Assembly: GCA_012729555.1 (NCBI GenBank)
Contig: JAAYCX010000020.1
Span: 14,908-78,907, forward strand
From: Acidobacteriota bacterium
GTDB lineage: Bacteria > Acidobacteriota > UBA6911
Direction: 5' to 3'
Length of the DNA stretch: 64,000 nt
The position numbers and the translations under genes are program-made. Below the pieces are notes generated by a model. That model was not told the origin of the DNA, ran no database searches, and was given only the letters and a program-made list of their open reading frames with translations. This document shows positions 1 to 58,054 of this stretch, in pieces. Within the stretch, counting starts at the first letter, position 1. Every line of letters starts with the position of its first letter.

Positions 1-783
1 GTCGCCATGACGCTGCTCAACCTCGCCAAGCGGACCGGCATCCCCGTCTTCCTCATCGGCCACGTCACCAAGGACGGCGCCATCGCGGGACCGAAGGCGC
101 TCGAGCACATCGTCGACGTCGTCCTCTATTTCGAGGGGGAGGGACGGCGCAACCACCGCATCGTCCGGGCGGTGAAGAACCGCTTCGGGGCGGCCAACGA
201 GGTCGGCATCTTCGAGATGACCTCCCGCGGCCTGGTCCCGGCCGCCAACCCCTCCGGCCTCTTTCTCCCCGACCGGGAGCTTTCGGCCGGCAGCTCGGTC
301 ATCTGCGCGATGGAGGGGACGCGGCCGCTCCTGGTCGAAATCCAGGCGCTGGTGGTCGCCACCCAGTACAGCACGGCGCGCCGCGTCGCCGACGGCGTCA
401 ACTACAACCGGATCTCGGTCCTGGTGGCGATGCTCGAAAAGCGGCTGGGAGTGCAGATGACGGGGAGCGACATCTACGTCAACACCGCCGGGGGGCTCGA
501 GGTGGACGAGCCCGCGGCCGACCTCGGCCTCTTCGCCGCCATCCTCGGCAGCCTGCGCAACCGCCCGCTGACCCCCGGGACCGTGCTCGTGGGGGAACTG
601 AGCCTGTCGGGCGACGTGCGCCCCGTCCCCCAGGCCCCCCTGAGGGTGCGCGAGGCGGCGGCCATGGGTTTCTCCCGCGTCCTCCTCCCCGCGGGGAACC
701 TCCCCCTCGTCGACCCCGTCGGCGGCATCGGGCTCGTGCCGATCGGGACGGTGGCGGAGCTCGCCGAGCTGATCTTCCCCTGA
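1..783 (+). CDS. radA: DNA repair protein RadA/Sms, C-terminal portion (5' end lies outside window)
   Basis: ORF 7..783 is open to the window edge; translation carries the RadA KNRFG motif (VKNRFGAANEVGIFEMT) and the Lon-protease-like C-terminal domain (GELSLSGDVRPV). Confidence 0.85.
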   Translation, partial: VAMTLLNLAKRTGIPVFLIGHVTKDGAIAGPKALEHIVDVVLYFEGEGRRNHRIVRAVKNRFGAANEVGIFEMTSRGLVPAANPSGLFLPDRELSAGSSVICAMEGTRPLLVEIQALVVATQYSTARRVADGVNYNRISVLVAMLEKRLGVQMTGSDIYVNTAGGLEVDEPAADLGLFAAILGSLRNRPLTPGTVLVGELSLSGDVRPVPQAPLRVREAAAMGFSRVLLPAGNLPLVDPVGGIGLVPIGTVAELAELIFP

Positions 784-20492: not shown

Positions 20493-20633
20493 ATGAACAC
20501 CATGAACTATCTCTTCGCGGCCAACGCCGTCATCTGGATCGTGCTCGCCCTCTTCCTGCTCCGGCTGCACGCGCGCGAGCGGAAACTGGGGGAGGAAATC
20601 GCCCGCCTGCGCCGGCTGATCGACAGGACCTAG
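20493..20633 (+). CDS. ccmD: heme exporter protein CcmD (46 aa; absent from ORF track)
   Basis: atgaacaccatgaactat...gacaggacctag gives MNTMNYLFAANAVIWIVLALFLLRLHARERKLGEEIARLRRLIDRT: single TM followed by a basic tail, directly after ccmC. Confidence 0.6.
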   Translation: MNTMNYLFAANAVIWIVLALFLLRLHARERKLGEEIARLRRLIDRT

Positions 20634-22828
20634 TCGGCGGCGACGGGCTGCGGGGCCAGCCGGAGGAGGAGGGCGCGCGCTTCTTCGCCGAGGAATTCCC
20701 AGAGCCCGAGCCGCGAGAGCGTTTCGGGGAGCGGGACCCCCTCCGGGCTCCACCCCCGCTCGCGGTAGTAGGCCGCGATCAGCCCCCGCAGCCGCTCCTT
20801 GCGGCAGGCCATGAGCCGCTCCCGCTTTTCCGCCGTCGGCAGCTCCGCGAGCCGCTCGGGCGCGAGGCCGCAGCAGGCGGCGAGCTCCCCGTCGTTGTAG
20901 GCGGCCTCCGCCTCGTAGAGGAGGTCGTCGGTCGGCCCGAGGGCGCGGTCGGGGATCCAGTCGTGGCGCGAGGTCTCCTCCCCGTAGCGGAGCACGTTCA
21001 GGACCCGCTGCAGGTTGATGTCGCGGTCGGTGCGGGCGAAGATCTCCTCCCACCCCAGCTCGGTCCCCAGCACGCCGTTGTAGTACTCGGCGTAGATCTC
21101 CTGCGTCGCCGGGTTGATGTTGACGTCCCCCTCCCCGCGCGCGTTCGATTCCGGGTTGAAGACATCGACCCAGGGGAGCTTGCACACCCCCATGTTGTCG
21201 TTCCCCAGGCGCACGCGCGGGTAGCTGACCAGCGCCCGGGCCTTGTCCTCGAAGGTGGGGAAGGCGCCCAGGAGGTCGGCCTTGATCAGCCAGGCGGCGG
21301 CGTGGTGGGCGCCGATGTCGCTCGCCGCGGCGTAGGACGCCTGCATCGAGAGGGAGCGGTGGGTCCGGTAGAAGGAGAAGGGAAGCCCCTTGGTCTGCAT
21401 CGCGAACGTCTCCAGTTCCGGGAGCGCGTCCTCCCCCGTCCGGGCGCGATGGCGCGCGGCGACCCAGGCGACCAGTTCCCCGATCCCCCTCCCGGCGGCG
21501 CGCGCCATTTCGCCCGACCCGTGCGCCAGGCGGTGGATGAATTCCAGGGCGGCCGGTTCGTCCCCCCACGAGAGCGCCGGGCCCCCGCCGTCCCCCGGCT
21601 CGAGGTAGCCGCGCTGCAGCGCCTCCATCAGGAACGCCATGATGCAGGAGGTGGTGATGGTGTCGATGCCGTAGTTGTCGCAGTGCCAGTTGGCTTCCAT
21701 GATGAACTCGGGGTTCCAGATGCCGAGGTTCGACCCGAAGCCGGCGGCGGTCTCGTATTCGGGCCCGTCCACCCACACCCGGCGCCCGGCGTGCGGGCCG
21801 CTCCGGAGCGTCACGCACCCCCCCTTGGTGCACTGCAGGTTGCAGCCGGGGAAGCAGCCGTCCATCCCCCGGTGGTCGAAGAGGTGCTCGGCGTAGTGCC
21901 TCCCGCAGATCTGTCCCGCCCTGGGGTCGGAGCCGAGCTGGAAGTTGCGGACCGGGAGCGACTGGTACTCCTCCCTGTTCATGAAGGTGATGAGCCCCGC
22001 GCTCCCCTTGCGCGCCATCTGGAGCGACCCGGGGTCGACCTCGCGCACCACCTTCTGCAGCCGCCCCCCCGCCCGGCGGGCGCGCTCCCAGTCGGCGGCG
22101 CCGTAGGGGTTTTCGCCGCGCGGGCTCTCGGCCACGACCACGATCGCGCCGAGGTTCTTGTCCCGCATAACGGTGCCGAGGCCCGTCCTTCCCGCCTGCT
22201 TGACCCGGAAGATCCCGCGCCCCCCCTCGCGCGGCTTGGTGACGTCCCAGTAGTGGCTGTTGATGCAGCCGTAGGCCGTGTGGGCGGCGCCGACGCCGGT
22301 GGAGAGGAAGGCGATGCGGCGCCGGTCGACCCCGGCCGCCTCGAAACGCCGGGCGATCTCCCCCTCCAGCTCGAACGCCTCCTCCCCCGGGGGCGCCTCC
22401 TCGATCCGCACCTCCCCCCGCAGGCCGTCGACGACCACCATCGCCCGCCCGGCCGATTTCCCGACCACCTCGAGGGCGTCGAACCCCGCGTACTTCAGGT
22501 AGGCCCCGAAATACCCGCCGAAGTTGGACACCCCGGGGATGCGGGTCAGGGGGGAGAGGGAGACCGCCATCGCCTTGGCCGCCCCCGGGAACTGGGGGAT
22601 CCCCCCGAGCGGGCCGTTGGCCACGATCAGGGGGTTTTCGGGGTCCTCGGGCCGGGTGGCGGCCGAGACCGCCTGGTGCAGCAGGTAGAGGCCCAGGGCG
22701 CGCCCCCCCAGGAAATAGTCCCGGACCTTCGGGTCGAGCGTCCGGACCGCGGCCGAGCGCGCGGCGAGGTCCACGCGGAGGACCCTGTTGGTGTAGCCGC
22801 GCTCGATCGTCCCTCTGCTGTAGTGCAT
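20630..22828 (-). CDS. tungsten-type aldehyde:ferredoxin oxidoreductase (AOR family), long 732-aa form
   Basis: N-terminal AOR_N-like segment (GYTNRVLRVDL...) and catalytic-domain motifs including DGCFPGCNLQCTKGGC; ATG at 22828. Confidence 0.8.
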   Translation of the reverse strand: MHYSRGTIERGYTNRVLRVDLAARSAAVRTLDPKVRDYFLGGRALGLYLLHQAVSAATRPEDPENPLIVANGPLGGIPQFPGAAKAMAVSLSPLTRIPGVSNFGGYFGAYLKYAGFDALEVVGKSAGRAMVVVDGLRGEVRIEEAPPGEEAFELEGEIARRFEAAGVDRRRIAFLSTGVGAAHTAYGCINSHYWDVTKPREGGRGIFRVKQAGRTGLGTVMRDKNLGAIVVVAESPRGENPYGAADWERARRAGGRLQKVVREVDPGSLQMARKGSAGLITFMNREEYQSLPVRNFQLGSDPRAGQICGRHYAEHLFDHRGMDGCFPGCNLQCTKGGCVTLRSGPHAGRRVWVDGPEYETAAGFGSNLGIWNPEFIMEANWHCDNYGIDTITTSCIMAFLMEALQRGYLEPGDGGGPALSWGDEPAALEFIHRLAHGSGEMARAAGRGIGELVAWVAARHRARTGEDALPELETFAMQTKGLPFSFYRTHRSLSMQASYAAASDIGAHHAAAWLIKADLLGAFPTFEDKARALVSYPRVRLGNDNMGVCKLPWVDVFNPESNARGEGDVNINPATQEIYAEYYNGVLGTELGWEEIFARTDRDINLQRVLNVLRYGEETSRHDWIPDRALGPTDDLLYEAEAAYNDGELAACCGLAPERLAELPTAEKRERLMACRKERLRGLIAAYYRERGWSPEGVPLPETLSRLGLWEFLGEEARALLLRLAPQPVAAD

Positions 22829-22951: not shown

Positions 22952-24355
22952 GTGAAAACAGCTTCCCCGAACGCCGACTGGGCCGCGATCTTCCGCGGGC
23001 GACGCGACCGGATCCGGGCCCGGACCGGAGGCGGCCCGATCCTCTGGCTGGGGCACGCGCCCCAGCCGCGCAACTACGCCGCCAACACCTACCCCTTCCG
23101 GCAGAATTCCCATTTCCTCTACTGCACCGGGCTGGCCGAACCGGACCTCGCCCTCCTCTCGCTGCCGGAAGCGGGGCGCGACATCCTCTTCGGCGACGGG
23201 GCGAGCCTCGACGACATCGTCTGGACCGGCCCGCGCCCCTCGCTCGAGGAGCTGGCGGCCGCGGCCGGCATCGACGACGTCCGCCCGGCGGAGAGCCTCC
23301 GGGGAGTCCTCGACGAGGCGCGGCGGCAGGGGCAGCCCGTCCACTACCTCCCCCCCTACCGGCACTCCTCGGTCTACGCCCTCTCGCGCCTGCTCGACAT
23401 CCCGATGGAGGAAGTGGGGGGGCGCGCCTCCTCCCTCCTGATGGAGCAGGTGGCGATCGAGCGGAGCGTCAAGGGCCCCGAGGAGGTGGCCGAGATCGAG
23501 GAGGCGCTCGGGATCACCGGCCGGATGCACCGCGCGGCGATGGCGGCGGCGCGCCCCGGGATGAAGGAAAGCGAGCTGGCGGGCCTGATCCAGGCGATTG
23601 CCCTCGCCGAAGACCGCGCCCAGGCCTACGACCCGATCGTGACGGTGCACGGGGAGGTGCTGCACAACCACTCCTACGACAATGTCCTCGCCGCGGGGGG
23701 GCTGGTGCTCAACGACTCCGGGGCGGAGTCCCCGATGGGCTACGCTTCGGACATCACCCGCACCTTCCCCGTCTCCGGGCGCTTCTCGCCGCTCCAGGCC
23801 GACCTCTACCGCGCCGTGCTCGGGACGCAGCGGGAGGCCATCGCCATGATCCGCCCCGGCGTCTCCTACCGCGAAGTCCACCTCGGCGCCTGCCGCCGCC
23901 TGGCCGAAGCGCTCCGCGGCCTGGGGCTGATGAAGGGGGACCCCGCGGCCGCGGTCGAGGCGGGGGCCCACGCGCTCTTTTTGCCGCACGGGATCGGCCA
24001 CATGCTCGGGCTCGACGTGCACGACATGGAGGACCTCGGGGACGTGGTCGGGCACGGAAAGGAGAAGCGCCCGGGTCAGTTCGGGCTCAACTACCTGAGG
24101 CTCAGCCGCCCGCTCGAGGCGGGGTTCGTGCTGACGGTGGAGCCGGGGGTCTACTTCATCCCCGCCCTCATCGAGCGCTGGCGCGCCGAAGGGCTCCACC
24201 GGGAATTTCTCGACTACGACCGGATCGCCCCCCTGGCCGGCTTCGGGGGGATCCGCACCGAAGACGACGTCCTGGTCACCCCCGAAGGGGCCCGCGTCCT
24301 GGGCCCCCCGGTCCCGAAGACGGTCGAGGAGGTGGAGGAGGCGTGCGCCCGATGA
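22952..24355 (+). CDS. pepP: Xaa-Pro aminopeptidase (M24B family)
   Basis: GTG start 22952; M24 metal-binding segments (HGIGHMLGLDVHD, VEPGVYF) and the AMP_N domain. Confidence 0.85.
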   Translation: MKTASPNADWAAIFRGRRDRIRARTGGGPILWLGHAPQPRNYAANTYPFRQNSHFLYCTGLAEPDLALLSLPEAGRDILFGDGASLDDIVWTGPRPSLEELAAAAGIDDVRPAESLRGVLDEARRQGQPVHYLPPYRHSSVYALSRLLDIPMEEVGGRASSLLMEQVAIERSVKGPEEVAEIEEALGITGRMHRAAMAAARPGMKESELAGLIQAIALAEDRAQAYDPIVTVHGEVLHNHSYDNVLAAGGLVLNDSGAESPMGYASDITRTFPVSGRFSPLQADLYRAVLGTQREAIAMIRPGVSYREVHLGACRRLAEALRGLGLMKGDPAAAVEAGAHALFLPHGIGHMLGLDVHDMEDLGDVVGHGKEKRPGQFGLNYLRLSRPLEAGFVLTVEPGVYFIPALIERWRAEGLHREFLDYDRIAPLAGFGGIRTEDDVLVTPEGARVLGPPVPKTVEEVEEACAR

Positions 24356-24933
24356 AGGCGGTGTGCGTCTACTGCGGCTCGAGCGCCGGCACCGGCGCAA
24401 AATACCGGGAAGCCGCGCGCACCCTGGGCCGCACGCTGGTCCGGCAAGGCCTCGAGCTGGTCTACGGGGGGGCGCGGGTGGGACTGATGGGGGAGCTGGC
24501 CGACGCCGTGCTCGCTTCGGGAGGAAGGGTCACCGGCGTCATCCCGGAAGCCTTCGCCGCGCGGGTGGCGCACGGGGGCCTCACCGGGCTCGAGATCGTC
24601 GGCGGCATGCACGAACGCAAGCAGAGGATGTTCGACCTCTCCGACGCCTTCATCGCCCTCCCCGGCGGGTTCGGGACCCTGGAGGAGCTGACGGAACTCC
24701 TGACGTGGGGGCAGCTCGACTTTCACCGGAAACCGTGCGGCCTTCTCAATGTTTCGGGCTTCTACGACCCGCTGCTGGCCTTTCTGGATCACGCCGTGCG
24801 GGAGGGCTTCATCAAGGCGGCGCACCGCCGGATGCTTTTCGCCTCGGAGGACTCCGAAGCCCTGCTCGAGCATTTCGGTTGCTACGACGCCCCGAAGACC
24901 GATAAGTGGTATAATCGGCCGATCGATTCCTGA
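24352..24933 (+). CDS. LOG-family cytokinin riboside 5'-monophosphate phosphoribohydrolase
   Basis: Motifs VCVYCGSS, GGxGxMG-like (GGARVGLMG) and PGGFGTLEEL; ATGA overlap with pepP. Confidence 0.85.
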   Translation: MKAVCVYCGSSAGTGAKYREAARTLGRTLVRQGLELVYGGARVGLMGELADAVLASGGRVTGVIPEAFAARVAHGGLTGLEIVGGMHERKQRMFDLSDAFIALPGGFGTLEELTELLTWGQLDFHRKPCGLLNVSGFYDPLLAFLDHAVREGFIKAAHRRMLFASEDSEALLEHFGCYDAPKTDKWYNRPIDS

Positions 24934-24937
24934 AGGC

Positions 24938-26230
24938 ATGATCCGAAACAGCGGATTTTCAAGAATAACCATAGAGGGGAAAGTGATTACGCTTATTGAG
25001 GCCCTGAATTTCCGTTCCCTCAGGTACGTGCGCCAGAGCCTTGGCGGATTTCACGTCCTGATCGGACCCAATGCCAGCGGAAAGACCACTTTCCTGGATG
25101 TTCCCGCCTTCCTCGGCCGGCTCGTATCCGACGGCCTGGAATCGGCCGTCGGCGAGCGCACGGCGAATTTCCAGGATCTTGTATGGCGCCGTGAGGGGCA
25201 GAGATTCGAACTCGCCATCGAGGCGGCGATACCGGCAAAACTCCGGAAGACGGGGGGCAACGGGGATTTCGATACCATTCGCTACGAAGTCGCCGTCGGG
25301 GCCCATCCGCAAACGGAGGAGTTGTCGATACTGGCGGAAAGCGTTCTGCTCAGGAATGCCCCGGTCGCCGAACCTCCCCAGAGAGACTTTTTTCCTTTCC
25401 TGCGGACGCCCCCCAATACGATCCTGTCGCCGAAATCCTCCCGGGGCTCAAAAACCGTTATCCGGAAGGTAGCTAAAGGCAACGACAACTTTTACGACGA
25501 AACGGGGAAAGGCTGGGATCATTCCTTCAAACTTGGCCCGATGAAGAGCGCCCTGGGCAACCTCCCGGAAGACGAATCCAGATTCCCGGTTTCAAGCTGG
25601 CTCAAGGGGTTCCTGATCAACGGTCTGCAACAGATCATCCTCAACAGCCTGCTCATCCGGCGGGCCAGCCCGCCCGGACAAATCCGGGGATTCCGGCCGG
25701 ATGGCTCCAACCTCCCCTGGGTGATTTCCGAGCTCGAAAAAAAGGGTTCCCCTGTCCTGGGGGAATGGATCGCCCACCTGCGGACGGCCCTGCCCGATCT
25801 CGAGGGCATCCGTACCGTCGAGAGGGCGGATGACCGGCACCGTTACATGATGTTGAGGTACCGGGACGGGCTGGAAGTCCCTTCATGGATGGCGTCCGAC
25901 GGGACGCTCCGGCTGCTGGCATTGACACTGCCCGCGTATCTTCCGGAATTCAGGGGCGCCTACCTGATCGAGGAGCCGGAAAACGGCATCCATCCGCGCG
26001 CCGTGGAGACCCTGTTCCAGTCGCTCTCCTCCGTCTACGACGCCCAGATTCTGGTGGCCACCCACTCCCCCGTGATTTTGAGCATCGTCCGGCCGGAGGA
26101 TGTGCTCTGCTTCGCCAAAACAGAAGAGGGGGCCACCGATATCGTGCGCGGCAGCGAGCATCCGGCCCTCGCGGAATGGCGGGGGGAGACCAACCTGGGC
26201 GTCATCTTCGCCGCCGGAGTTCTGGGATGA
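24938..26230 (+). CDS. cytosolic ABC-type ATPase of the AAA_21 / OLD-like family
   Basis: Walker A GPNASGKTTFLD, signature-like SDGTLRLLALTL, Walker B AYLIEEPENGIHP, H-loop VATHSP; no TM segments. Alternative start GTG 24983 is preceded by GAGGGGA; lower GC than the flanks. Confidence 0.8.
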   Translation: MIRNSGFSRITIEGKVITLIEALNFRSLRYVRQSLGGFHVLIGPNASGKTTFLDVPAFLGRLVSDGLESAVGERTANFQDLVWRREGQRFELAIEAAIPAKLRKTGGNGDFDTIRYEVAVGAHPQTEELSILAESVLLRNAPVAEPPQRDFFPFLRTPPNTILSPKSSRGSKTVIRKVAKGNDNFYDETGKGWDHSFKLGPMKSALGNLPEDESRFPVSSWLKGFLINGLQQIILNSLLIRRASPPGQIRGFRPDGSNLPWVISELEKKGSPVLGEWIAHLRTALPDLEGIRTVERADDRHRYMMLRYRDGLEVPSWMASDGTLRLLALTLPAYLPEFRGAYLIEEPENGIHPRAVETLFQSLSSVYDAQILVATHSPVILSIVRPEDVLCFAKTEEGATDIVRGSEHPALAEWRGETNLGVIFAAGVLG

Positions 26231-26886
26231 AGGCCGAGGCGCCCGGCAAGGACCTCATCGCCCTGGTCGCCGACAAGAATATGGAACACGCCCTGCGGGG
26301 CCTGCTGAATCGTCACGAATCTCTGGGAATCCGTCCACTAAGAGAAAAAAGGGACTACGACATATTCGTACACCCGCACAGGGATCCGGGCTGCCTGGCA
26401 AAATCCACCGAATTCCTTCGGCCCTGGCAGCGGACCTATCGCCGGGCCCTGGTGATGTTTGACCGGGAAGGCTGTGGCCGGGAAGCCCAATCGCGCCTCG
26501 AACTCGAAAGCGAGCTCGAGCAGCAGCTGGCGCGATCGGGATGGGACGAACGGGCGGCGGTGGTGATCATCGACCCGGAGCTGGAAAACTGGGTGTGGAG
26601 CAGCTCGCCTCTCGTGGATCGGGCGCTGGGCTGGACAGGACGGTCCCCCGACCTCCGCCAATGGCTCCTGGATGAAGGCTTTCTGAAATCAGCCGCGGAG
26701 GCGAAGCCCGCGCCCCCCAAACCGGCCATGGATCGAGCCCTGAGGATGGGGAAAAAACCGCATTCATCCTCGCTGTTCCAGCAGCTTGCCGAGACGGTTT
26801 CGCTTTCGGGATGCACCGACGACGCCTTCCTGAAGCTCAGGCAGATCCTGATCGGCTGGTTTCCGCTGTCGGCGTCGGAAAATTGA
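26227..26886 (+). CDS. uncharacterised 219-aa partner of the AAA_21 ATPase (possible divergent Toprim/RloB/DUF4276-like effector)
   Basis: ATG 26227 overlaps the ATPase stop (ATGA); alternating hydrophobic-strand and acidic motifs (LIALVADKNMEH, ALVMFDREG, VVIIDPELENW); no confident family by eye; low-GC DNA. Confidence 0.55.
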   Translation: MKAEAPGKDLIALVADKNMEHALRGLLNRHESLGIRPLREKRDYDIFVHPHRDPGCLAKSTEFLRPWQRTYRRALVMFDREGCGREAQSRLELESELEQQLARSGWDERAAVVIIDPELENWVWSSSPLVDRALGWTGRSPDLRQWLLDEGFLKSAAEAKPAPPKPAMDRALRMGKKPHSSSLFQQLAETVSLSGCTDDAFLKLRQILIGWFPLSASEN

Positions 26887-26914
26887 TGACTCTCCCGGGC
26901 TGATGCCGTCCCGT

Positions 26915-27907
26915 TCAGCGGTTGGGGATCCCCATCGCCGCGCGCACCTCGCGAAGGAGGGGCGCGGCGACCCGGCGCGCGCGCTCCGCGCCGCGGCGCA
27001 GGACCTCGGCGATATACTCCGGCTGGCTCTCCAGTTCGCGCCGGCGCGCGCGCACCGGCTCGAACCGGCGCATGTAGAGGTCGAAGATCGCCTCCTTCAC
27101 CTCGCGGTAGCCGAGACCCCCGCTCGTGAAGCGGTCGCGCCAGTACTCCCGCTCCTCCTCCGTGCAGAAGAGTTTCAGGACCGCGTAGAGCATGCTCCTG
27201 TCCGGGTCCTTCGGCTCCTTGAGGGAGGCGGAATCGGTGACGATGGAGAAGATCTGCTGGCGCACCTCCTCCTCGGGGGCGAACAGTTCGATGGTGTTGT
27301 TGTACGACTTCGACATCTTCCGGCCGTCCCGCCCCGGGACCACCGCCACGCTCTCCGGGATGTAGGCCTCGGGGACGGTGAGCAGCTCCCCGTAGAGGTG
27401 GTTGAAACTCCCGGCGATGTCGCGCGTCACCTCGATGTGCTGCTTCTGGTCCTGGCCGACGGGGACGCGGTTGGCGCGCACGATGAGGATGTCGGCCGCC
27501 TGCAGGACCGGGTAGGCGAACAGGCCGTGGTCGGAGGAGAGCCCCTGCGCGATCTTGTCCTTGTAGGCGTGGCAGCGCTCGAGCAGCCCCATCGGGGTCA
27601 CCGTGGTCAGCAGCCACTGCAGTTCGCACACCTCGGGCAGGTCGCTCTGCACGTAGATGGCCGCCAGCTCCGGGTCGAGCCCCAGGGCGATGTAGTCGGC
27701 CGCGGTGCTGCGGGTCAGCCCAAGCAGCCGCCCCGGCTCGCGCACCGAGGTCAGCGCGTGGTAGTTCGCCAGGAAGTAGTAGCACTCGTGCCCTTCCCGG
27801 ATGAACTGGACGAACTGCTGCACCGCCCCGAAATAATTGCCGAGATGGAGGTTTCCCGAGGGCTGGATGCCCGAGACAATGGTCAGCTTCCTGGTCGCGT
27901 CGGTCAT
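26915..27907 (-). CDS. trpS: tryptophan--tRNA ligase
   Basis: Class I motifs (SGIQPSGNLHLGNY as HIGH; KMSKS as KMSKS); start chosen at MTDATRKL (27907); the ORF is open up to 27979. Confidence 0.85.
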   Translation of the reverse strand: MTDATRKLTIVSGIQPSGNLHLGNYFGAVQQFVQFIREGHECYYFLANYHALTSVREPGRLLGLTRSTAADYIALGLDPELAAIYVQSDLPEVCELQWLLTTVTPMGLLERCHAYKDKIAQGLSSDHGLFAYPVLQAADILIVRANRVPVGQDQKQHIEVTRDIAGSFNHLYGELLTVPEAYIPESVAVVPGRDGRKMSKSYNNTIELFAPEEEVRQQIFSIVTDSASLKEPKDPDRSMLYAVLKLFCTEEEREYWRDRFTSGGLGYREVKEAIFDLYMRRFEPVRARRRELESQPEYIAEVLRRGAERARRVAAPLLREVRAAMGIPNR

Positions 27908-28105
27908 GGTGTTCCTTGTCGTTCCCCTTTGAGTTGGTGCGCAATCGAAGATAGTGTCATTGCCCGCCCCCTTTTTCAACGAAGAGTTTGCCGGCGGGGC
28001 GGAGATTGTGGAACCCCGCGGGGGTGCGGGGCGTATCGCCCTTCGTTGACTCGCTGGTGCATAATGCCTATACTTTTCCGAGGGAATGAAGTATCCGGAG
28101 GGTAG

Positions 28106-52910: not shown

Positions 52911-53813
52911 CTAAAATTTCGCGATTTCAATCTTACGCATTTGCATCATGTTGGCGAACGCGTGCGGTTTGTTCATCAGTTCTTCCATGTTCGCCGGGAC
53001 CACCTGCCAGCTGACACCGAATCTGTCTTTGCTCCAGCCGCACTGCTCCGCCCCCGGTACCGCCGAGAGTTTTTCCCAGAAGTAATCGATCTCGGCCTGA
53101 TCCTGACACGCGATCGACAGGGAAATCGCTTCGTTGAAGTTGAAGTCATGCTCGACCCCGCTGTCCATCGCCGCGAACCATTGGCCTGCCAACGTGAAGT
53201 CGGCGAACATCAGCGACCCTGACCTGGCCGGACCGGTATCGTCCGCATAACGGGCGAGCGTGCCCAACCTGGCGTCTTCGAATACGGACAGATAATGATG
53301 GATCGCTTCCTCTGCGCGGTTGTTGTTTTCGCCTGAGAACATCAGCGACGGTATGACGAAGGGACGCGGCTCGCCGGCGGGGTCGGTCAAAATCAGCTGC
53401 CACGTCAGCCCGTAGCGGTCCTTGACCCAGCCATAGCGTTTGCTGAAGGGATAGGCCCCCAACGGCATGAGGGCCTCGCCGCCGTCGATGAGTCTGTTCC
53501 ACAGCTCCTCGAGGTGCTCGCCCGCCCGCCCGTCACGCGACGGGTCGAAATTCAGCATGAACGAAATCGATGGGTTGAATGCAAACTCCGGCCCGGCGTT
53601 GATGGCCACAAACCGAAACCCCCCGACTTCGAAGTCGACGGTCAGCACCTTGCCGGCCAGCCCGAGCTGAAACGCCGCCAACCCCTCCTCGGCGCTTTTC
53701 GGGTAATAAATAGTGGAACCCACCTTGCCCTCCGGAAACGCCGACGCGTAAAAACCGGCCGCTTCCTGGGCATTGCCATCGAACCACAAATTCGGAGTGA
53801 TTTTCTGTTGCAT
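52911..53813 (-). CDS. tandem-domain VOC/PhnB-like (3-demethylubiquinone-9 3-methyltransferase-domain) protein
   Basis: Two PhnB-like halves (ITPNLWFDGNAQEAAGFY... and FTLAGQWFAAMDSG...); ATG 53813 preceded by AAGGAGG; lower GC. Confidence 0.6.
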   Translation of the reverse strand: MQQKITPNLWFDGNAQEAAGFYASAFPEGKVGSTIYYPKSAEEGLAAFQLGLAGKVLTVDFEVGGFRFVAINAGPEFAFNPSISFMLNFDPSRDGRAGEHLEELWNRLIDGGEALMPLGAYPFSKRYGWVKDRYGLTWQLILTDPAGEPRPFVIPSLMFSGENNNRAEEAIHHYLSVFEDARLGTLARYADDTGPARSGSLMFADFTLAGQWFAAMDSGVEHDFNFNEAISLSIACQDQAEIDYFWEKLSAVPGAEQCGWSKDRFGVSWQVVPANMEELMNKPHAFANMMQMRKIEIAKF

Positions 53814-53870
53814 GACGCCCTCCTCCTTCATGCTCCTGTCACTCCATGATACCAGATGCGGGATCAGCTC

Positions 53871-53899
53871 TTTGCCCTGGTCCGTCCCCGTTTTTTTAT
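53871..53899. repeat. copy A of 28/29-nt repeat TTTGCCCTGGTCCGTCCCCGTTTTTT(T)AT
   Basis: Identical core to copy B at 55612..55639; overlaps the hipA stop codon (53896-53898). Confidence 0.65.
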
Positions 53900-55149
53900 C
53901 CTGATGCGGCCTTCAGATCTTCATGTTCGAACGCGGACGACATGCGGTCGATCTCAGCCGGTGTAAGGCCGAGCTTCCTCGCCTCCCGACGCCATGAGGA
54001 AACCGCCCGCCCCACCTGCTTCGCGATCGCATGGGCTTCGTCCTCGCATAGTTCGAAATAGCCGGAGACCTGGAGCGCCAGCTTCAGTGACGCGGTGCCG
54101 TCGTAGAGATCGATAGCGGTGGTCAGAATGCGCCGTTTAATGTCGGTGGGCACGGGATTGAGGTCGTATGCCGGCGACAGCCGCCAACCGGAGGAACCGG
54201 CCCATAGAAAGCCGTGGTTGCGCAGATGGTCGTCCGTATTCGAAATCAGGACGTTGAACACAATCCTCCGCCAGAGCGCGTGCATGTCTTCCTTCGGTTC
54301 CGCGCCATGCTGACGGAGAACATCGACGAATTCCAGGTAACTCCGCGCCTCGTTGTCTTTGGCGTCGAGCATGCTCATCGCGGATAAAAACGGCAGGCGC
54401 GTTTCCTGCTCCCGGTCGAAACGGCGCAGTAAAAGAACGGGCCTGTCGGCCACGGTTTCAAGACGCCAGGTCGGAACCGGGATGCCTGCCTTCGCGGCCA
54501 GCGTCAGGGCCACAGCCTCCCACAGGACCGTATTCACCTCGTCTCCCTTGTCCGGAAACTTGGCAATGGCGAGATGGCCGTCGCGGTCCCGGACCGAGGC
54601 TTTGGGCCGGGCGCCGCCGAGCGATGAGCCGGGCGCGAGGAGCAGCCGCAAATCCTCATCACTGTCCGTGTCGCTCGAAACATGCTCCGCCGCGGATAGA
54701 AGTCGCGGCAGCTCCCATAGTGGCGGAATCCTCCTCTGTCCCTGCCCGGCCAGAAACGGCCCCCCTTCCCGGTCGGCGAAACGCAATGCTCCCTGGCGCG
54801 CTTCATCGTCCACCATGAGGAGATAGTCGATTTCCCCGAGGGTGCGCGGCGTCTCTCCCTGAAGCTCGGCGCGCCTTCGCTCGGCGCGTCGCATCAGGAC
54901 GCGTCCCCATCGATCAGGGGCGGAGTCGCCGATGGATCCGAAAAGCGCTTTATCGGATGGTGTGTGAAACGGTCCCGGCCCGAGGGTCAGGGCAGGCTCG
55001 AGGGAAAAGCGATCGGAATGAGTGAGCCAGCTCTTGTCGTATTCAAAGGTGGCGCTCTCCCTGTCCTTGCGCATGCGCGCCCACAGGCGCCCCACCAGGT
55101 GAGGAATGCCTTGCAGGTCCACGAAGACCAGCACTTCTCTGTCCATCAA
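53896..55149 (-). CDS. hipA: HipA-family type II toxin (Ser/Thr kinase)
   Basis: HipA N-terminal domain and C-terminal catalytic motif ISNTDDHLRNHGFLW...SPAYDLNP. Confidence 0.85.
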   Translation of the reverse strand: MMDREVLVFVDLQGIPHLVGRLWARMRKDRESATFEYDKSWLTHSDRFSLEPALTLGPGPFHTPSDKALFGSIGDSAPDRWGRVLMRRAERRRAELQGETPRTLGEIDYLLMVDDEARQGALRFADREGGPFLAGQGQRRIPPLWELPRLLSAAEHVSSDTDSDEDLRLLLAPGSSLGGARPKASVRDRDGHLAIAKFPDKGDEVNTVLWEAVALTLAAKAGIPVPTWRLETVADRPVLLLRRFDREQETRLPFLSAMSMLDAKDNEARSYLEFVDVLRQHGAEPKEDMHALWRRIVFNVLISNTDDHLRNHGFLWAGSSGWRLSPAYDLNPVPTDIKRRILTTAIDLYDGTASLKLALQVSGYFELCEDEAHAIAKQVGRAVSSWRREARKLGLTPAEIDRMSSAFEHEDLKAASG

Positions 55150-55611: not shown

Positions 55612-55639
55612 TTTGCCCTGGTCCGTCCCCGTTTTTTAT
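55612..55639. repeat. copy B of the 28-nt repeat TTTGCCCTGGTCCGTCCCCGTTTTTTAT
   Basis: Overlaps the stop codon (55636-55638) of the cytochrome gene; identical core to copy A. Confidence 0.65.
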
Positions 55640-56766
55640 TGGAGGGCGCCGAAGAAAACGATCTTTTCGCCGGCCAGGAGGGCGTCGCGCTCCTTCTCCC
55701 ACTCGAAGTCGCGCGTCCCCTCCGGCAGGGGGCGGACGCGGACGGCGATGATCGAAAAAGAGCTCCGGCCGCCGTTATGGTCGTACTCCTCGTTGAAGGC
55801 GTACTCGGGGGCCACGCTCTTTTGACATTCGGCGCCGGCGTTTTTCGGCAGGTCGGGGGGCGAGGGGACGAACTGGGGAACGACCAGGCGCAGCGGGCCG
55901 GTGCCGACGATGCGGCCGCTCGCGGGGTCCAGGTGCGCCGGCTCGATCTTCCGGCCGTTCTCCTCGAAGGCGAGCATGACCTTCATCGAAGGGAGCGCCC
56001 GGCCGGGGTCGAGGCCCGCAGCGTTGTAATTGACCCAGCCGCAGGCGCCCAGCGCTTTCTTGTCGAGCCCCGGCACCGGCCTGGCCTGCGCCCACTCGCG
56101 CCGGAGCTCCTCGAGGGTGAACGTCCCCTCGAACCCGTCGACCGAGATGAAATCGACGCTCTCCGCCCCGGGCGCGAGCCCGATCGCCTCGAGGAGCGCG
56201 TACACGGAGTTGCCCCGGTACTGGTTGTAGAAGTCCCCCTGGCGGTTGTGGGAGGTGTTGAGAAACACGGTGTGGCCGACGACGGGGGAGAGGGCGCGGA
56301 GTTCCCGCCCGGAGTAGACCCGGTGGGGGGCGAGGGCGGCCCCGGGGCGGCTCGAAGCCTCCCCCGGGAGGGTGCCGGCCAGCAGTTCCGCCTCGTTCGA
56401 GACGCCGTCGCCGTCGGCGTCCCCCCCGGCGATCTTCCGCAGGGCGGCGACGCCGCGGCCGGCGGCCAGGTACTCGGCGCCGAACCGGGTGAGGGTGGCC
56501 ACGGCCGGACGGCCCCCCCGGACGTGGACCGCGTGGCAATAGCCGCAGTGGTTCTCGACCCGGCTCCCGGAGCCTTCCTCGACCCGCCCGCTCCGGTGGC
56601 AGGGGGCGCACGAATCGGACGCGCCCCCCTTGAGCTGCGGGTAGGCCGCCAGCACCGCTTCGACGTCGCGGTCGTCCGCATGCCCCTTGTAGGCCGCGTA
56701 GCCCGTAACCAACAACAGCCCGAGTCCCAGTGAAGCGGCCGCCAGCCACCGGTGGTTATGCGCCAT
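55636..56766 (-). CDS. membrane-anchored di-heme c-type cytochrome fused to a sulfite-oxidase-like (Mo-oxidoreductase-type) domain
   Basis: Two CxxCH motifs (CAPCH, CGYCH); C-terminal region has a PLRLVVP-type motif as in Mo-cofactor oxidoreductase domains; start taken at ATG 56766 (MAHNHRWLAAASLGLGLLLV). Confidence 0.55.
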   Translation of the reverse strand: MAHNHRWLAAASLGLGLLLVTGYAAYKGHADDRDVEAVLAAYPQLKGGASDSCAPCHRSGRVEEGSGSRVENHCGYCHAVHVRGGRPAVATLTRFGAEYLAAGRGVAALRKIAGGDADGDGVSNEAELLAGTLPGEASSRPGAALAPHRVYSGRELRALSPVVGHTVFLNTSHNRQGDFYNQYRGNSVYALLEAIGLAPGAESVDFISVDGFEGTFTLEELRREWAQARPVPGLDKKALGACGWVNYNAAGLDPGRALPSMKVMLAFEENGRKIEPAHLDPASGRIVGTGPLRLVVPQFVPSPPDLPKNAGAECQKSVAPEYAFNEEYDHNGGRSSFSIIAVRVRPLPEGTRDFEWEKERDALLAGEKIVFFGALQ

Positions 56767-56942
56767 GGCTCTCCATCCCTGTTCGTTTGAATTTGTCATC
56801 CGGAACGCTCCCTGCTCTTTTTGACGGATATTCACGTCCGCCGGAAGTGTACCACGAAGGGGCGGTTTCCCCTGTGCCCACAAATGGGGTATAATAAGAC
56901 TGGTTGTTAGACTAGTTGATACTTTGCGGGAGGGAAGCGGCC

Positions 56943-57188
56943 GTGAAGACCATAGGGGCTTTTGACGCCAAAACGAACCTCAGCCGGCTGCTGAGGGAGG
57001 TGGAAGTCGACCGGGAGGTGTTTGTCATCGAACGCAACCGGAGGAAGGTGGCTACCCTGGTTCCCTACCGCGAAGGGAACCGGGCGGCATCGGAATCGAT
57101 CGTGGAGCGTTTTCGCCGGCTCCGCGCCCGCGGCGGAAGCGACGCCACCCCGGTCAAAGAGCTCATTTCGGAAGGGAGAAAGCGATGA
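56943..57188 (+). CDS. Phd/YefM-family antitoxin (VapB-like)
   Basis: 81 aa from GTG 56943 (VKTIGAFDAKTNLSRLLREVEVDREVFVIERNRRKVATLVP...), a typical Phd N-terminus; TTG 56916 is an alternative start; 4-nt overlap with vapC. Confidence 0.65.
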   Translation: MKTIGAFDAKTNLSRLLREVEVDREVFVIERNRRKVATLVPYREGNRAASESIVERFRRLRARGGSDATPVKELISEGRKR

Positions 57189-57607
57189 GGGAGGAGACGG
57201 TGGTGGTGGACTGCTCCATCTCCGCTTCGTGGTACCTCAGGGACGAAGCCTCCCCCCGCGCTGAAAACGTTCTGGCGCGCATTGCCGATGGGACCTTTCA
57301 TGCCCTCGTCCCCTCGCTCTGGTGGTACGAAAACGTCAACGTCATCAAATCGGCGCAGCGCCGCGGGAGACTGCGCCCCCGGGATGCCGCCACCGCGCTC
57401 TTTCTCCTCCGGGAGTTGCCGCTGGAAACCTGGGATCCCGACAAGCAGGGGATCGCGGGGCTGCTCCAGTTCACGCTCGCGCATAATCTTTCCGCCTACG
57501 ACGCCGCTTATCTCCACCTGGCCGTTTCCACCGGGGCCACGCTGTTCACCGCGGATTCGGACCTTCTGGCCCTGAGCGATCGGTACCCCTGCATTTCCGG
57601 AAGGTAA
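57185..57607 (+). CDS. vapC: PIN-domain ribonuclease toxin VapC
   Basis: PIN acidic residues (VVVDCS...; ...FTADSDL) and 140-aa length; ATGA overlap with the antitoxin. Confidence 0.8.
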   Translation: MREETVVVDCSISASWYLRDEASPRAENVLARIADGTFHALVPSLWWYENVNVIKSAQRRGRLRPRDAATALFLLRELPLETWDPDKQGIAGLLQFTLAHNLSAYDAAYLHLAVSTGATLFTADSDLLALSDRYPCISGR

Positions 57608-57790
57608 ACCTCTTATTCTCAGTGCCTTACTTCGGTTCGGCGTATTGATGTAGACCCTTTCCGTCTTCATTGCTGACAACCATGCAGGTGATCCGAATCT
57701 CTTCACCCGTTCTTTTGATGAACCCTTTGCTTTCGAGAAAGGAAACCTCCTGCTCGTATTTTTCCCGGCTCCACTGGTTGCTATTCATAT

Positions 57791-58054
57791 ATGAAGCACA
57801 GCCGGAAAACGGATATCGGCGCCGAGTTGCTTCGTCACTTGAGTGAAAAACAGGTGCCCGGCACCGTTTATTCCTATCGGCCCGCCGATTTGCTCTACTA
57901 TGCAGATAGCGGCGGGAGAAAGACGGGCATGAGTGCAAGGTTCGGCGCGGGACTACGCAATTTTCGGGAGACCTACCAAAGGCTGGTGAACAGCTGGATT
58001 TGGATTGATAATGCCGGGGCGGAACCCATCATTATCGAAGCGGGAGACAACTGA
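57791..58054 (+). CDS. hypothetical 87-aa protein (first of overlapping small ORF pair)
   Basis: ATG 57791 in roughly 50% GC DNA; stop TGA overlaps the next ATG (TGATG); no family recognised. Confidence 0.4.
   Translation: MKHSRKTDIGAELLRHLSEKQVPGTVYSYRPADLLYYADSGGRKTGMSARFGAGLRNFRETYQRLVNSWIWIDNAGAEPIIIEAGDN

Follow-up and report, generated by a model that had tools for sequence, protein, structure and literature searches.

A putative two-gene defence cassette of MAD3–MAD4/HEC-01 type, probably horizontally acquired, beside trpS in an acidobacterial genome

The methylation-associated defense system (MADS) is an eight-gene, ~22-kb operon (Maestri et al., bioRxiv 10.1101/2023.03.30.534895; the same work is cited as Cell Host Microbe 2024 in PMC12065111). 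Within it, mad3 and mad4 are each required for protection, and mad5 could be deleted only jointly with mad2 or mad3 (bioRxiv 10.1101/2023.03.30.534895), an observation that assigns MAD3 to the system's toxic effector arm. In the MacSyFinder model for MADS, MAD6 (a kinase), MAD7 and MAD8 are mandatory, within 10 genes, and MAD3 and MAD4 count as accessory, since their detection is not reliable in every system (bioRxiv 10.1101/2023.03.30.534895). An ABC ATPase together with a TOPRIM protein also makes up HEC-01, the "Hma-embedded candidate 01" of PADLOC (Payne et al., bioRxiv 10.1101/2024.01.29.577857), which was shortlisted partly since such candidates occur outside Hma loci too (bioRxiv 10.1101/2024.01.29.577857). 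Here, we describe a gene pair of this kind at positions 24934–26890 of a 64,000-nt stretch of an Acidobacteriota bacterium genome (assembly GCA_012729555.1, contig JAAYCX010000020.1, positions 14,908 to 78,907 of the forward strand), which is the window referred to throughout. We put at roughly 65% the probability that these two genes make up a self-contained defence cassette, acquired horizontally, that encodes a split OLD-like ATPase/nuclease of MAD3–MAD4/HEC-01 type.

The segment holds exactly two genes on the same strand, which overlap by an ATGA at 26227–26230. It lies between a LOG-family gene, whose TGA stop occupies 24931–24933 on the plus strand, and trpS, whose stop (26915–26917, minus strand) converges on that of gene B (26884–26886). 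Both the two-gene content and these edges agree with a preliminary description of the locus, which had placed the boundaries at the LOG stop (24933) and the convergent trpS stop. The first gene, gene A (24983..26230, +), encodes a MAD3-family ABC ATPase of the SMC/Rad50/OLD type, with 415 amino acids from a GTG start. The preliminary description had begun it at the ATG at 24938, which would give 430 amino acids. The GTG at 24983 is probably the true start, since two related strains (L083 and L172) share the Shine–Dalgarno sequence GAGGGG and the GTG but not the ATG. The alignment to the MAD3 model, which starts at residue 16 of the 430-amino-acid form, fits this start. The conserved Shine–Dalgarno sequence lies 5 nt ahead of the GTG in a 49-nt spacer (24934..24982, +). 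The second gene, gene B (26227..26886, +), encodes a 219-amino-acid MAD4-family Toprim-fold (DUF4276-like) putative nuclease and, given the ATGA overlap, is predicted to be translationally coupled to gene A.

Gene A passes the NCBIfam equivalog model for MAD3 (NF047739) with 502.7 bits against a cut-off of 420, covering positions 1–427 of 427. Pfam assigns it to the AAA_21 ABC ATPases, with weak RecF and SMC matches besides. Its motifs are intact, with Walker A GPNASGKT at residue 28, a signature-like SDG at 305, Walker B YLIEEPE at 327 and an H-loop ATHS at 359. Among the PADLOC profiles, HEC-01A ranked best (PDLC04182, 1.6e-40, residues 17–421 aligned to profile positions 4–392 of 406), followed by AriA, mad3, AbiLi (1.1e-19), GajA and Old. 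The AriA match has the same length and coordinates as that of Pfam AAA_21, so this profile looks like a generic one. The predicted structure (predicted local distance difference test score, pLDDT, 85) is an SMC/Rad50-type ABC head, and the folds it matched were SMC (18.1), the retron Ec83 ATPase (18.0), Rad50 (17.8), PtuA (17.1), AriA (15.3), OLD (14.1) and GajA (13.4). When gene A was searched by sequence against the PDB, the matches were confined to the Walker B/signature region.

Gene B passes the NCBIfam equivalog model for MAD4 (NF047734) over its full length, with 241.8 bits against a cut-off of 160, and mad4 was its only PADLOC match, the HEC-01B models not being reached. Among 63 close homologues of protein B, PADLOC mad4 was matched by 61 and HEC-01B by 21 (best 1e-7), suggesting that the MAD3–MAD4 and HEC-01 modules are related. 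No Pfam family scored above threshold for gene B. DUF4276 (PF14103) reached 13.6 bits against a threshold of 30.2 (E = 0.083), and it was the only Pfam family to recur among the homologues, with weak matches in 20 of the 63 (best E = 1.3e-3). DUF4276 has been placed in the Toprim superfamily, with Mad4 named as a DUF4276 homologue (PMC12065111). Protein B has no sequence match in the PDB and none in PHROGs. The gene B product folds as an OLD-type Toprim nuclease domain. Its conserved acidic residues sit at or just past the C-terminal ends of strands (D16 at β1, D79 at β3, E118 and E120 at β4); D53 and K165 are conserved as well, and all six residues are common to the canonical MAD4 of MADS. 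We also observed that the ATPase is better conserved than its partner, the nearest non-self homologues being 80% and 60% identical, respectively, with a mean column identity of 67% for the ATPase (42 sequences) and 57% for the nuclease (63 sequences).

The pair resembles several described systems without coinciding with any of them. As in the canonical MADS operon of Piscinibacter, mad3 is followed by mad4 with a 4-nt overlap, and both proteins pass the respective MADS equivalog models; the window, unlike that operon, contains no MAD1, MAD2 (methyltransferase), MAD5 (S subunit), MAD6 (kinase), MAD7 or MAD8, and identity to a MADS-embedded pair is only ~35%. With HEC-01 it shares the two-gene architecture of an ABC ATPase paired with a TOPRIM protein, as well as the best PADLOC match of gene A; HEC-01, however, is defined by its embedding in Hma, whereas the pair described here is embedded in nothing and protein B lacks a HEC-01B match. 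PARIS, which combines the ABC ATPase AriA with the DUF4435 Toprim nuclease AriB (PMC11464382), likewise has its ATPase and Toprim on two polypeptides, but no DUF4435 sequence match was found here, and the matched AriB chain has 305 residues compared with the 219 of protein B. In PARIS, the AriA-type ATPase builds a hexameric scaffold and senses a phage trigger such as Ocr. The OLD-type Toprim nuclease domain of the gene B product links it to the OLD family, although in OLD itself (P2 Old and the class 2 OLD structures 6nk8 and 6p74) and in GajA the ATPase and the Toprim lie in one polypeptide rather than in two genes, and the locus lacks the GajB-like helicase partner of Gabija. AbiL (an AbiLi AAA_21 ATPase with a RloB-type Toprim, AbiLii) also couples an AAA_21 ATPase to a small divergent Toprim protein, but no RloB match was found here. 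Finally, the DUF4276 proteins, including the NsnC variants of Menshen, are small divergent Toprims too, although the match of protein B lies far below the Pfam threshold.

The remainder of MADS is missing from the window. As a positive control, the NCBIfam models recognized all of MAD1 to MAD8 in an operon on a Piscinibacter plasmid. When the eight Piscinibacter proteins were compared with the whole window by tblastn, only MAD3 (35% identity, 8e-72) and MAD4 (35% identity, 3e-33) were found, all other matches having E values of at least 0.029; MAD6, MAD7 and MAD8 gave no match with E < 0.3 anywhere in the 64 kb. When the genes between 17 and 35 kb and between 51 and 60 kb were searched with hidden Markov models, no further MAD family emerged. 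Thus, MAD1, MAD2 and MAD5 to MAD8 are absent from all 64 kb, and the window holds no cognate methyltransferase, neither MAD2 nor the specificity subunit MAD5.

The same pair stands alone in other hosts. Six contexts of the nearest MAD4 homologues (51–60% identity) were sampled, and in each of them an ATPase gene lies directly upstream and the pair is alone, surrounded by unrelated housekeeping genes that differ between hosts. Within ±10 kb of these six pairs there was no methylase, kinase or other MAD gene of a MADS system. Weak tblastn matches to the MAD6 kinase in two of these loci (L167 and L169) came from a generic Ser/Thr kinase with tetratricopeptide repeats, 9–10 kb away, and were discarded. 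Protein B is 51–60% identical to stand-alone MAD4s and only ~35% identical to MADS-embedded MAD4, and the MAD4 family as a whole comprises ~1,360 representatives when clustered at 50% identity. One homologue of 825 amino acids (P0296) joins a MAD3-like part (residues 1–394, 60% identical to gene A) to a MAD4-like part (residues 420–592, 56% identical to gene B), and has a C-terminal tail with many Arg, Pro and Ser residues. In another locus (L165:10732-12119; JGI 3300041086), the MAD3–MAD4 genes are convergent with a second AAA_15/AAA_21 ATPase (350 amino acids) and an open reading frame (ORF) of 112 amino acids, and together they form a miniature defence island. At a third locus (L167:8697-10004; ENA ERZ25039546 contig_141837), the ATPase upstream of an intact MAD4 homologue was called as a 72-amino-acid fragment. 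There, tblastn recovered 216 MAD3-like residues, and an identical MAD4 lies beside an intact 417-amino-acid ATPase in another sample; the fragment reflects either a sequencing frameshift or true decay.

Next, the composition of the segment was compared with that of same-size windows across the whole stretch. Its GC content is 61.3%, against 69.2% for the window (standard deviation of same-size windows, 3.1 points), at the 1.5th percentile. The preliminary description had called the segment AT-richer, at roughly 50–58% GC, and had put the flanking DNA at about 70%. The deviation is real and the flanks do measure 67–72%, but the range of 50–58% overstates the difference: only 20% of the 100-bp windows inside the segment fall within it, the lowest 300-bp windows have 55–58%, and the 60-mer quoted as an example (25381–25440) has 55%. 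GC content at third codon positions (GC3) deviates more clearly than total GC. Across ~48 other genes it averages 0.90, with a median of 0.92; in gene A it is 0.757 (z = -2.1) and in gene B 0.741 (z = -2.4), and the neighbouring genes pepP (0.94), LOG (0.86), trpS (0.92) and GWxTD (0.93) have higher values. An index resembling the codon adaptation index (CAI) gave z = -2.0 for gene A and likewise for gene B, and the tetranucleotide distance of the segment gave z = 3.5, with 0.8% of windows equally deviant. Since GWxTD is also low in overall GC but has a GC3 of 0.93, the signal of the segment is not an amino-acid effect. Overall, the sliding GC, codon and tetranucleotide comparisons, which the preliminary description had proposed, distinguish 24938–26886 from the flanking genes. 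The segment is not the only such region, as two further islands, one at 52.9–55.1 kb and the other at 56.9–58.1 kb, deviate as much or more.

None of the usual marks of a classical genomic island (an integrase or transposase, a tRNA target, flanking direct repeats) accompanies the segment. No tRNA lies near it and no Rfam family matched across its junctions; the direct repeats at its flanks are short and at chance level; the gene scan, which covered 17–35 kb and 51–60 kb, brought up no integrase or transposase; and the neighbours are all housekeeping genes. In this respect, the preliminary description, which had seen no integrase, tRNA or flanking repeat, was borne out. A scan around the insert likewise found no promoter-like or terminator-like site at either junction. 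On the left, outside the cassette, the LOG/TIGR00730-family gene (24343..24933, +; Pfam PF03641, 3.9e-40; TIGR00730, 188 bits) overlaps the pepP stop and is close to native in composition, with z values of about -0.5 for both GC3 and CAI. LOG was also considered as a member of the cassette and rejected, as no LOG neighbour occurs in any of the six other contexts and its GC3 and codon usage are near native. On the right, a 28-nt spacer without a terminator-like hairpin (26887..26914) separates the gene B stop from trpS, also outside the cassette (tryptophan–tRNA ligase; 26915..27907, -; Pfam PF00579; TIGR00233, 273.6 bits). The trpS product has 330 or 323 amino acids in other assemblies, and the 354-amino-acid ORF starts at 27979. 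Further neighbours are ccmB/C, aldehyde:ferredoxin oxidoreductase and pepP on the LOG side and GWxTD, rmlD, smpB, pepA and pdxA on the trpS side.

The corresponding junction was then compared in related genomes. The NCBI names attached to TrpS homologues of 94, 79 and 77% identity mark the host as an acidobacterium. Contigs that encode the exact MAD4 protein number at least 24; they come from many samples, and the context is this one in each. In L083 and L172, whose TrpS is 93–94% identical, the LOG–MAD3–MAD4–trpS arrangement is as here. In L174 (TrpS 85%) and L173 (TrpS 83%), the GWxTD/rmlD/smpB/pepA/pdxA side is syntenic, and MAD3, MAD4 and LOG are all missing. Past the trpS stop, L174 carries small unannotated ORFs; L173 carries a toxin–antitoxin pair instead, with a PIN toxin (PF01850) and an AF2212-like antitoxin (PF01954) just past the stop (L173:11007-11657; ENA ERZ21878447 ctg45467l). 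In L086 and L087 (TrpS 74–75%), trpS is directly convergent with pepP, with neither the pair nor LOG. The insertion into this lineage is thus a recent one and is bracketed in time, the pair being present at 93–94% TrpS identity and absent at 85% or less, and the pair is not conserved at this locus throughout the lineage. Given the different small genes found at the trpS stop of L173 and L174, the region just 3' of trpS appears to be a hotspot at which small cassettes vary, without an integrase. The relatives also differ from the host in base composition. The host locus has ~69% GC, L173 and L174 (83–85% TrpS identity, ~87% SmpB identity) have 47–49%, and the relatives at 75% TrpS identity (the L085–L087 set) have 52–59%, a large shift inside a fairly narrow acidobacterial clade. 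We also observed that both LOG (24343-24933) and aldehyde:ferredoxin oxidoreductase (20630-22828) are missing at the corresponding positions in relatives; the order in L086 is ccmC–pepP–trpS, and no LOG lies near trpS in L173 or L174. With near-native GC3 values (0.86 and 0.97, respectively), these two genes are either older insertions or losses in the relatives.

Beyond this clade, MAD3 homologues that are 68–80% identical occur in Myxococcota, Bacillota, Chloroflexota, Planctomycetota, Bacteroidota and Betaproteobacteria, and TrpS in other phyla is at most 55% identical among the matches listed. In four of five independent hosts, the homologous pair lies 7–11 GC points under its flanks. Together with the deviant composition and the empty sites in relatives, the cross-phylum identity and the low GC of the pairs elsewhere support the horizontal origin that the preliminary description had proposed from composition. 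As regards a carrier, tblastn found no match in 72,556 plasmid records except one (Piscinibacter) and none in 50,697 phage records, and these searches identified no carrier element. Since its arrival, the pair appears to have been maintained. In the comparison with L172, the ratio of nonsynonymous to synonymous substitution rates (dN/dS, ω) was 0.196 for MAD3 (dS 0.18) and 0.323 for MAD4 (dS 0.13), and the picture was the same with L083, the ranges over both strains being 0.19–0.20 and 0.25–0.32, respectively. Ten flanking housekeeping genes gave ω values of 0.20–0.37 and dS values of 0.07–0.19, which the dS of the pair (0.13–0.18) matches, suggesting that the pair was present before these strains diverged and that it evolves under ordinary purifying selection. 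The possibility that the genes are decaying pseudogenes was rejected on dN/dS and on their intact motifs.

In architecture, the pair would in effect be an OLD-family nuclease divided into two polypeptides, as in PARIS, AbiL and HEC-01. The products of genes A and B are predicted to form a complex in which the ATPase would act as sensor and regulator and keep the nuclease inactive. An infection-associated cue would then license the nuclease, in an ATP-dependent manner, to cut phage DNA or host RNA such as tRNA, and this cutting would halt phage replication. Since no methyltransferase lies within the 64 kb, self would probably be told from non-self by sensing of a trigger, as in PARIS and OLD, and not by methylation. 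By analogy with the PARIS model (PMC11464382), the orphan pair most plausibly works like PARIS or OLD, with an ATPase oligomer that restrains the nuclease, senses the cue and releases or activates it. The cassette probably entered by recombination into the variable spot just 3' of trpS. With no promoter-like or terminator-like site in 24934–24982, it is probably transcribed by read-through from pepP–LOG.

Several points weigh against this interpretation. The literal Glu/DxD of Toprim is absent from protein B, with D16 and D79-x-E81 in its place, and the nuclease activity of the gene B product is putative. Defence by MAD3–MAD4 on its own is a prediction, and the architecturally equivalent HEC-01 protected against no phage tested (bioRxiv 10.1101/2024.01.29.577857). 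The one fused form that was found, P0296, could be either a real fusion or the artefact of a frameshift in the gene call. The relatives that lack the pair are fairly distant, have 47–59% GC and also lack LOG at the site, so that the empty-site comparison spans considerable divergence. In the scans of the surroundings of the insert, no promoter, mobility gene or repeat accounts for its expression or insertion. The absence of the other MADS genes covers 64 kb only; in MADS the pair works inside a methylation-based system, and a partner may lie elsewhere in the genome. This last point bears directly on a different explanation, in which the pair derives from a full MADS, either as a remnant left by the loss of the other six genes or as a satellite that works in trans with MADS-like methylase and kinase genes elsewhere in the chromosome. 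Such an origin would agree with the MADS equivalog models that both proteins pass, with the variable completeness of MADS operons, in which MAD3 and MAD4 are accessory (bioRxiv 10.1101/2023.03.30.534895), and with a view limited to 64 kb of the genome. We nevertheless consider it unlikely, because the insert consists of exactly two genes with junctions of 49 and 28 nt and no gene fragments, the six homologous pairs in unrelated hosts are all alone within ±10 kb, protein B is much closer to stand-alone versions (51–60%) than to MADS-embedded MAD4 (~35%), and both genes are under purifying selection.

The lack of protection by HEC-01 in the published assay (bioRxiv 10.1101/2024.01.29.577857) can also be read as a sign that the pair is a selfish, toxin–antitoxin-like addiction module, in which a nuclease toxin is restrained by the ATPase and the genes are kept by post-segregational killing and not for a benefit against phages. 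The Pfam text for AAA_21 ("putative AbiEii toxin, type IV TA system"), a PDB entry that titles AriA "AriA antitoxin", the PIN/AF2212-like pair at the same site in L173 and the other toxin–antitoxin modules of the window (HipA and Phd–PIN) point in the same direction. However, MADS needs both mad3 and mad4 to confer resistance to phages (bioRxiv 10.1101/2023.03.30.534895), defence has been demonstrated for related ATPase–Toprim pairs such as PARIS (PMC11464382), and the 68–80% identity of the ATPase across phyla is suggestive of a constrained sensing machine rather than a simple antitoxin. Addiction, moreover, does not rule out abortive-infection defence, and we regard pure addiction as improbable, to about the same degree as a MADS remnant. 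Far less probable still is that the genes are a native housekeeping DNA-repair ATPase/nuclease of the RecF/SbcC/OLD-like kind, whose low GC would stem from its amino acids or from low expression. The SMC/Rad50/RecF-like fold of gene A, its weak RecF and SMC matches and the low overall GC of GWxTD for amino-acid reasons would suit such a role, but GC3 itself is low (0.74–0.76, against 0.93 in GWxTD), the pair is absent from four related lineages, its phyletic spread is patchy and crosses phyla, and its matches to defence families are at equivalog level. A horizontally acquired defence cassette is thus the reading that we favour. A broader proposal, to which we would give somewhat less than even odds, is that stand-alone MAD3–MAD4 is an autonomous, methylation-independent anti-phage system forming a distinct clade of split OLD-like modules widespread in environmental phyla, with the MADS and Hma copies as embedded instances and the trpS 3' flank as an integrase-free swapping hotspot.

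Elsewhere in the window, we observed a second low-GC3 island at 52911-55149 (-), which encodes a PhnB-like protein with a 3-dmu-9_3-mt domain (GC3 0.78) and a HipA-family kinase toxin (PF07804, GC3 0.73). A third island at 56916-58054 (+) contains a Phd/YefM antitoxin (56916–57188) overlapping a PIN-domain VapC-like toxin (57185–57607), as well as an 87-amino-acid ORF (57791–58054) that has no family match and whose GC3 of 0.65 is lower than that of any other gene in the window. Between these two toxin–antitoxin islands lies a GEGP-motif diheme protein (55636-56883, -; NF041762, 354 bits). At 487-578 (-), within the first predicted ORF (7–783, +), ARAGORN called a "tRNA-???" whose anticodon would have four bases (agga); this call is probably a false positive.

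The families of the two genes are known, and so is the class of their architecture; what is modestly new is the occurrence of MAD3–MAD4 without the other MADS genes, both here and commonly elsewhere. As a mobile defence module the pair is fairly ordinary, notable mainly for that missing remainder. The locus is a clear natural case in which a defence cassette has been captured between core genes with no mobility gene, and selection on the pair can be measured. MAD3–MAD4, described only as part of the eight-gene MADS, is commonly found alone, suggesting that it is a portable ATPase–nuclease effector module of MADS. This also suggests that the name "methylation-associated defense system" protein, as annotation pipelines give it to such orphans, conveys a methylation context that they lack. 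Should the orphan pair not defend by itself, the locus would be an ordinary horizontally acquired accessory locus; if it does, it would represent one more OLD/PARIS-like system and a tractable two-protein model of MADS killing.

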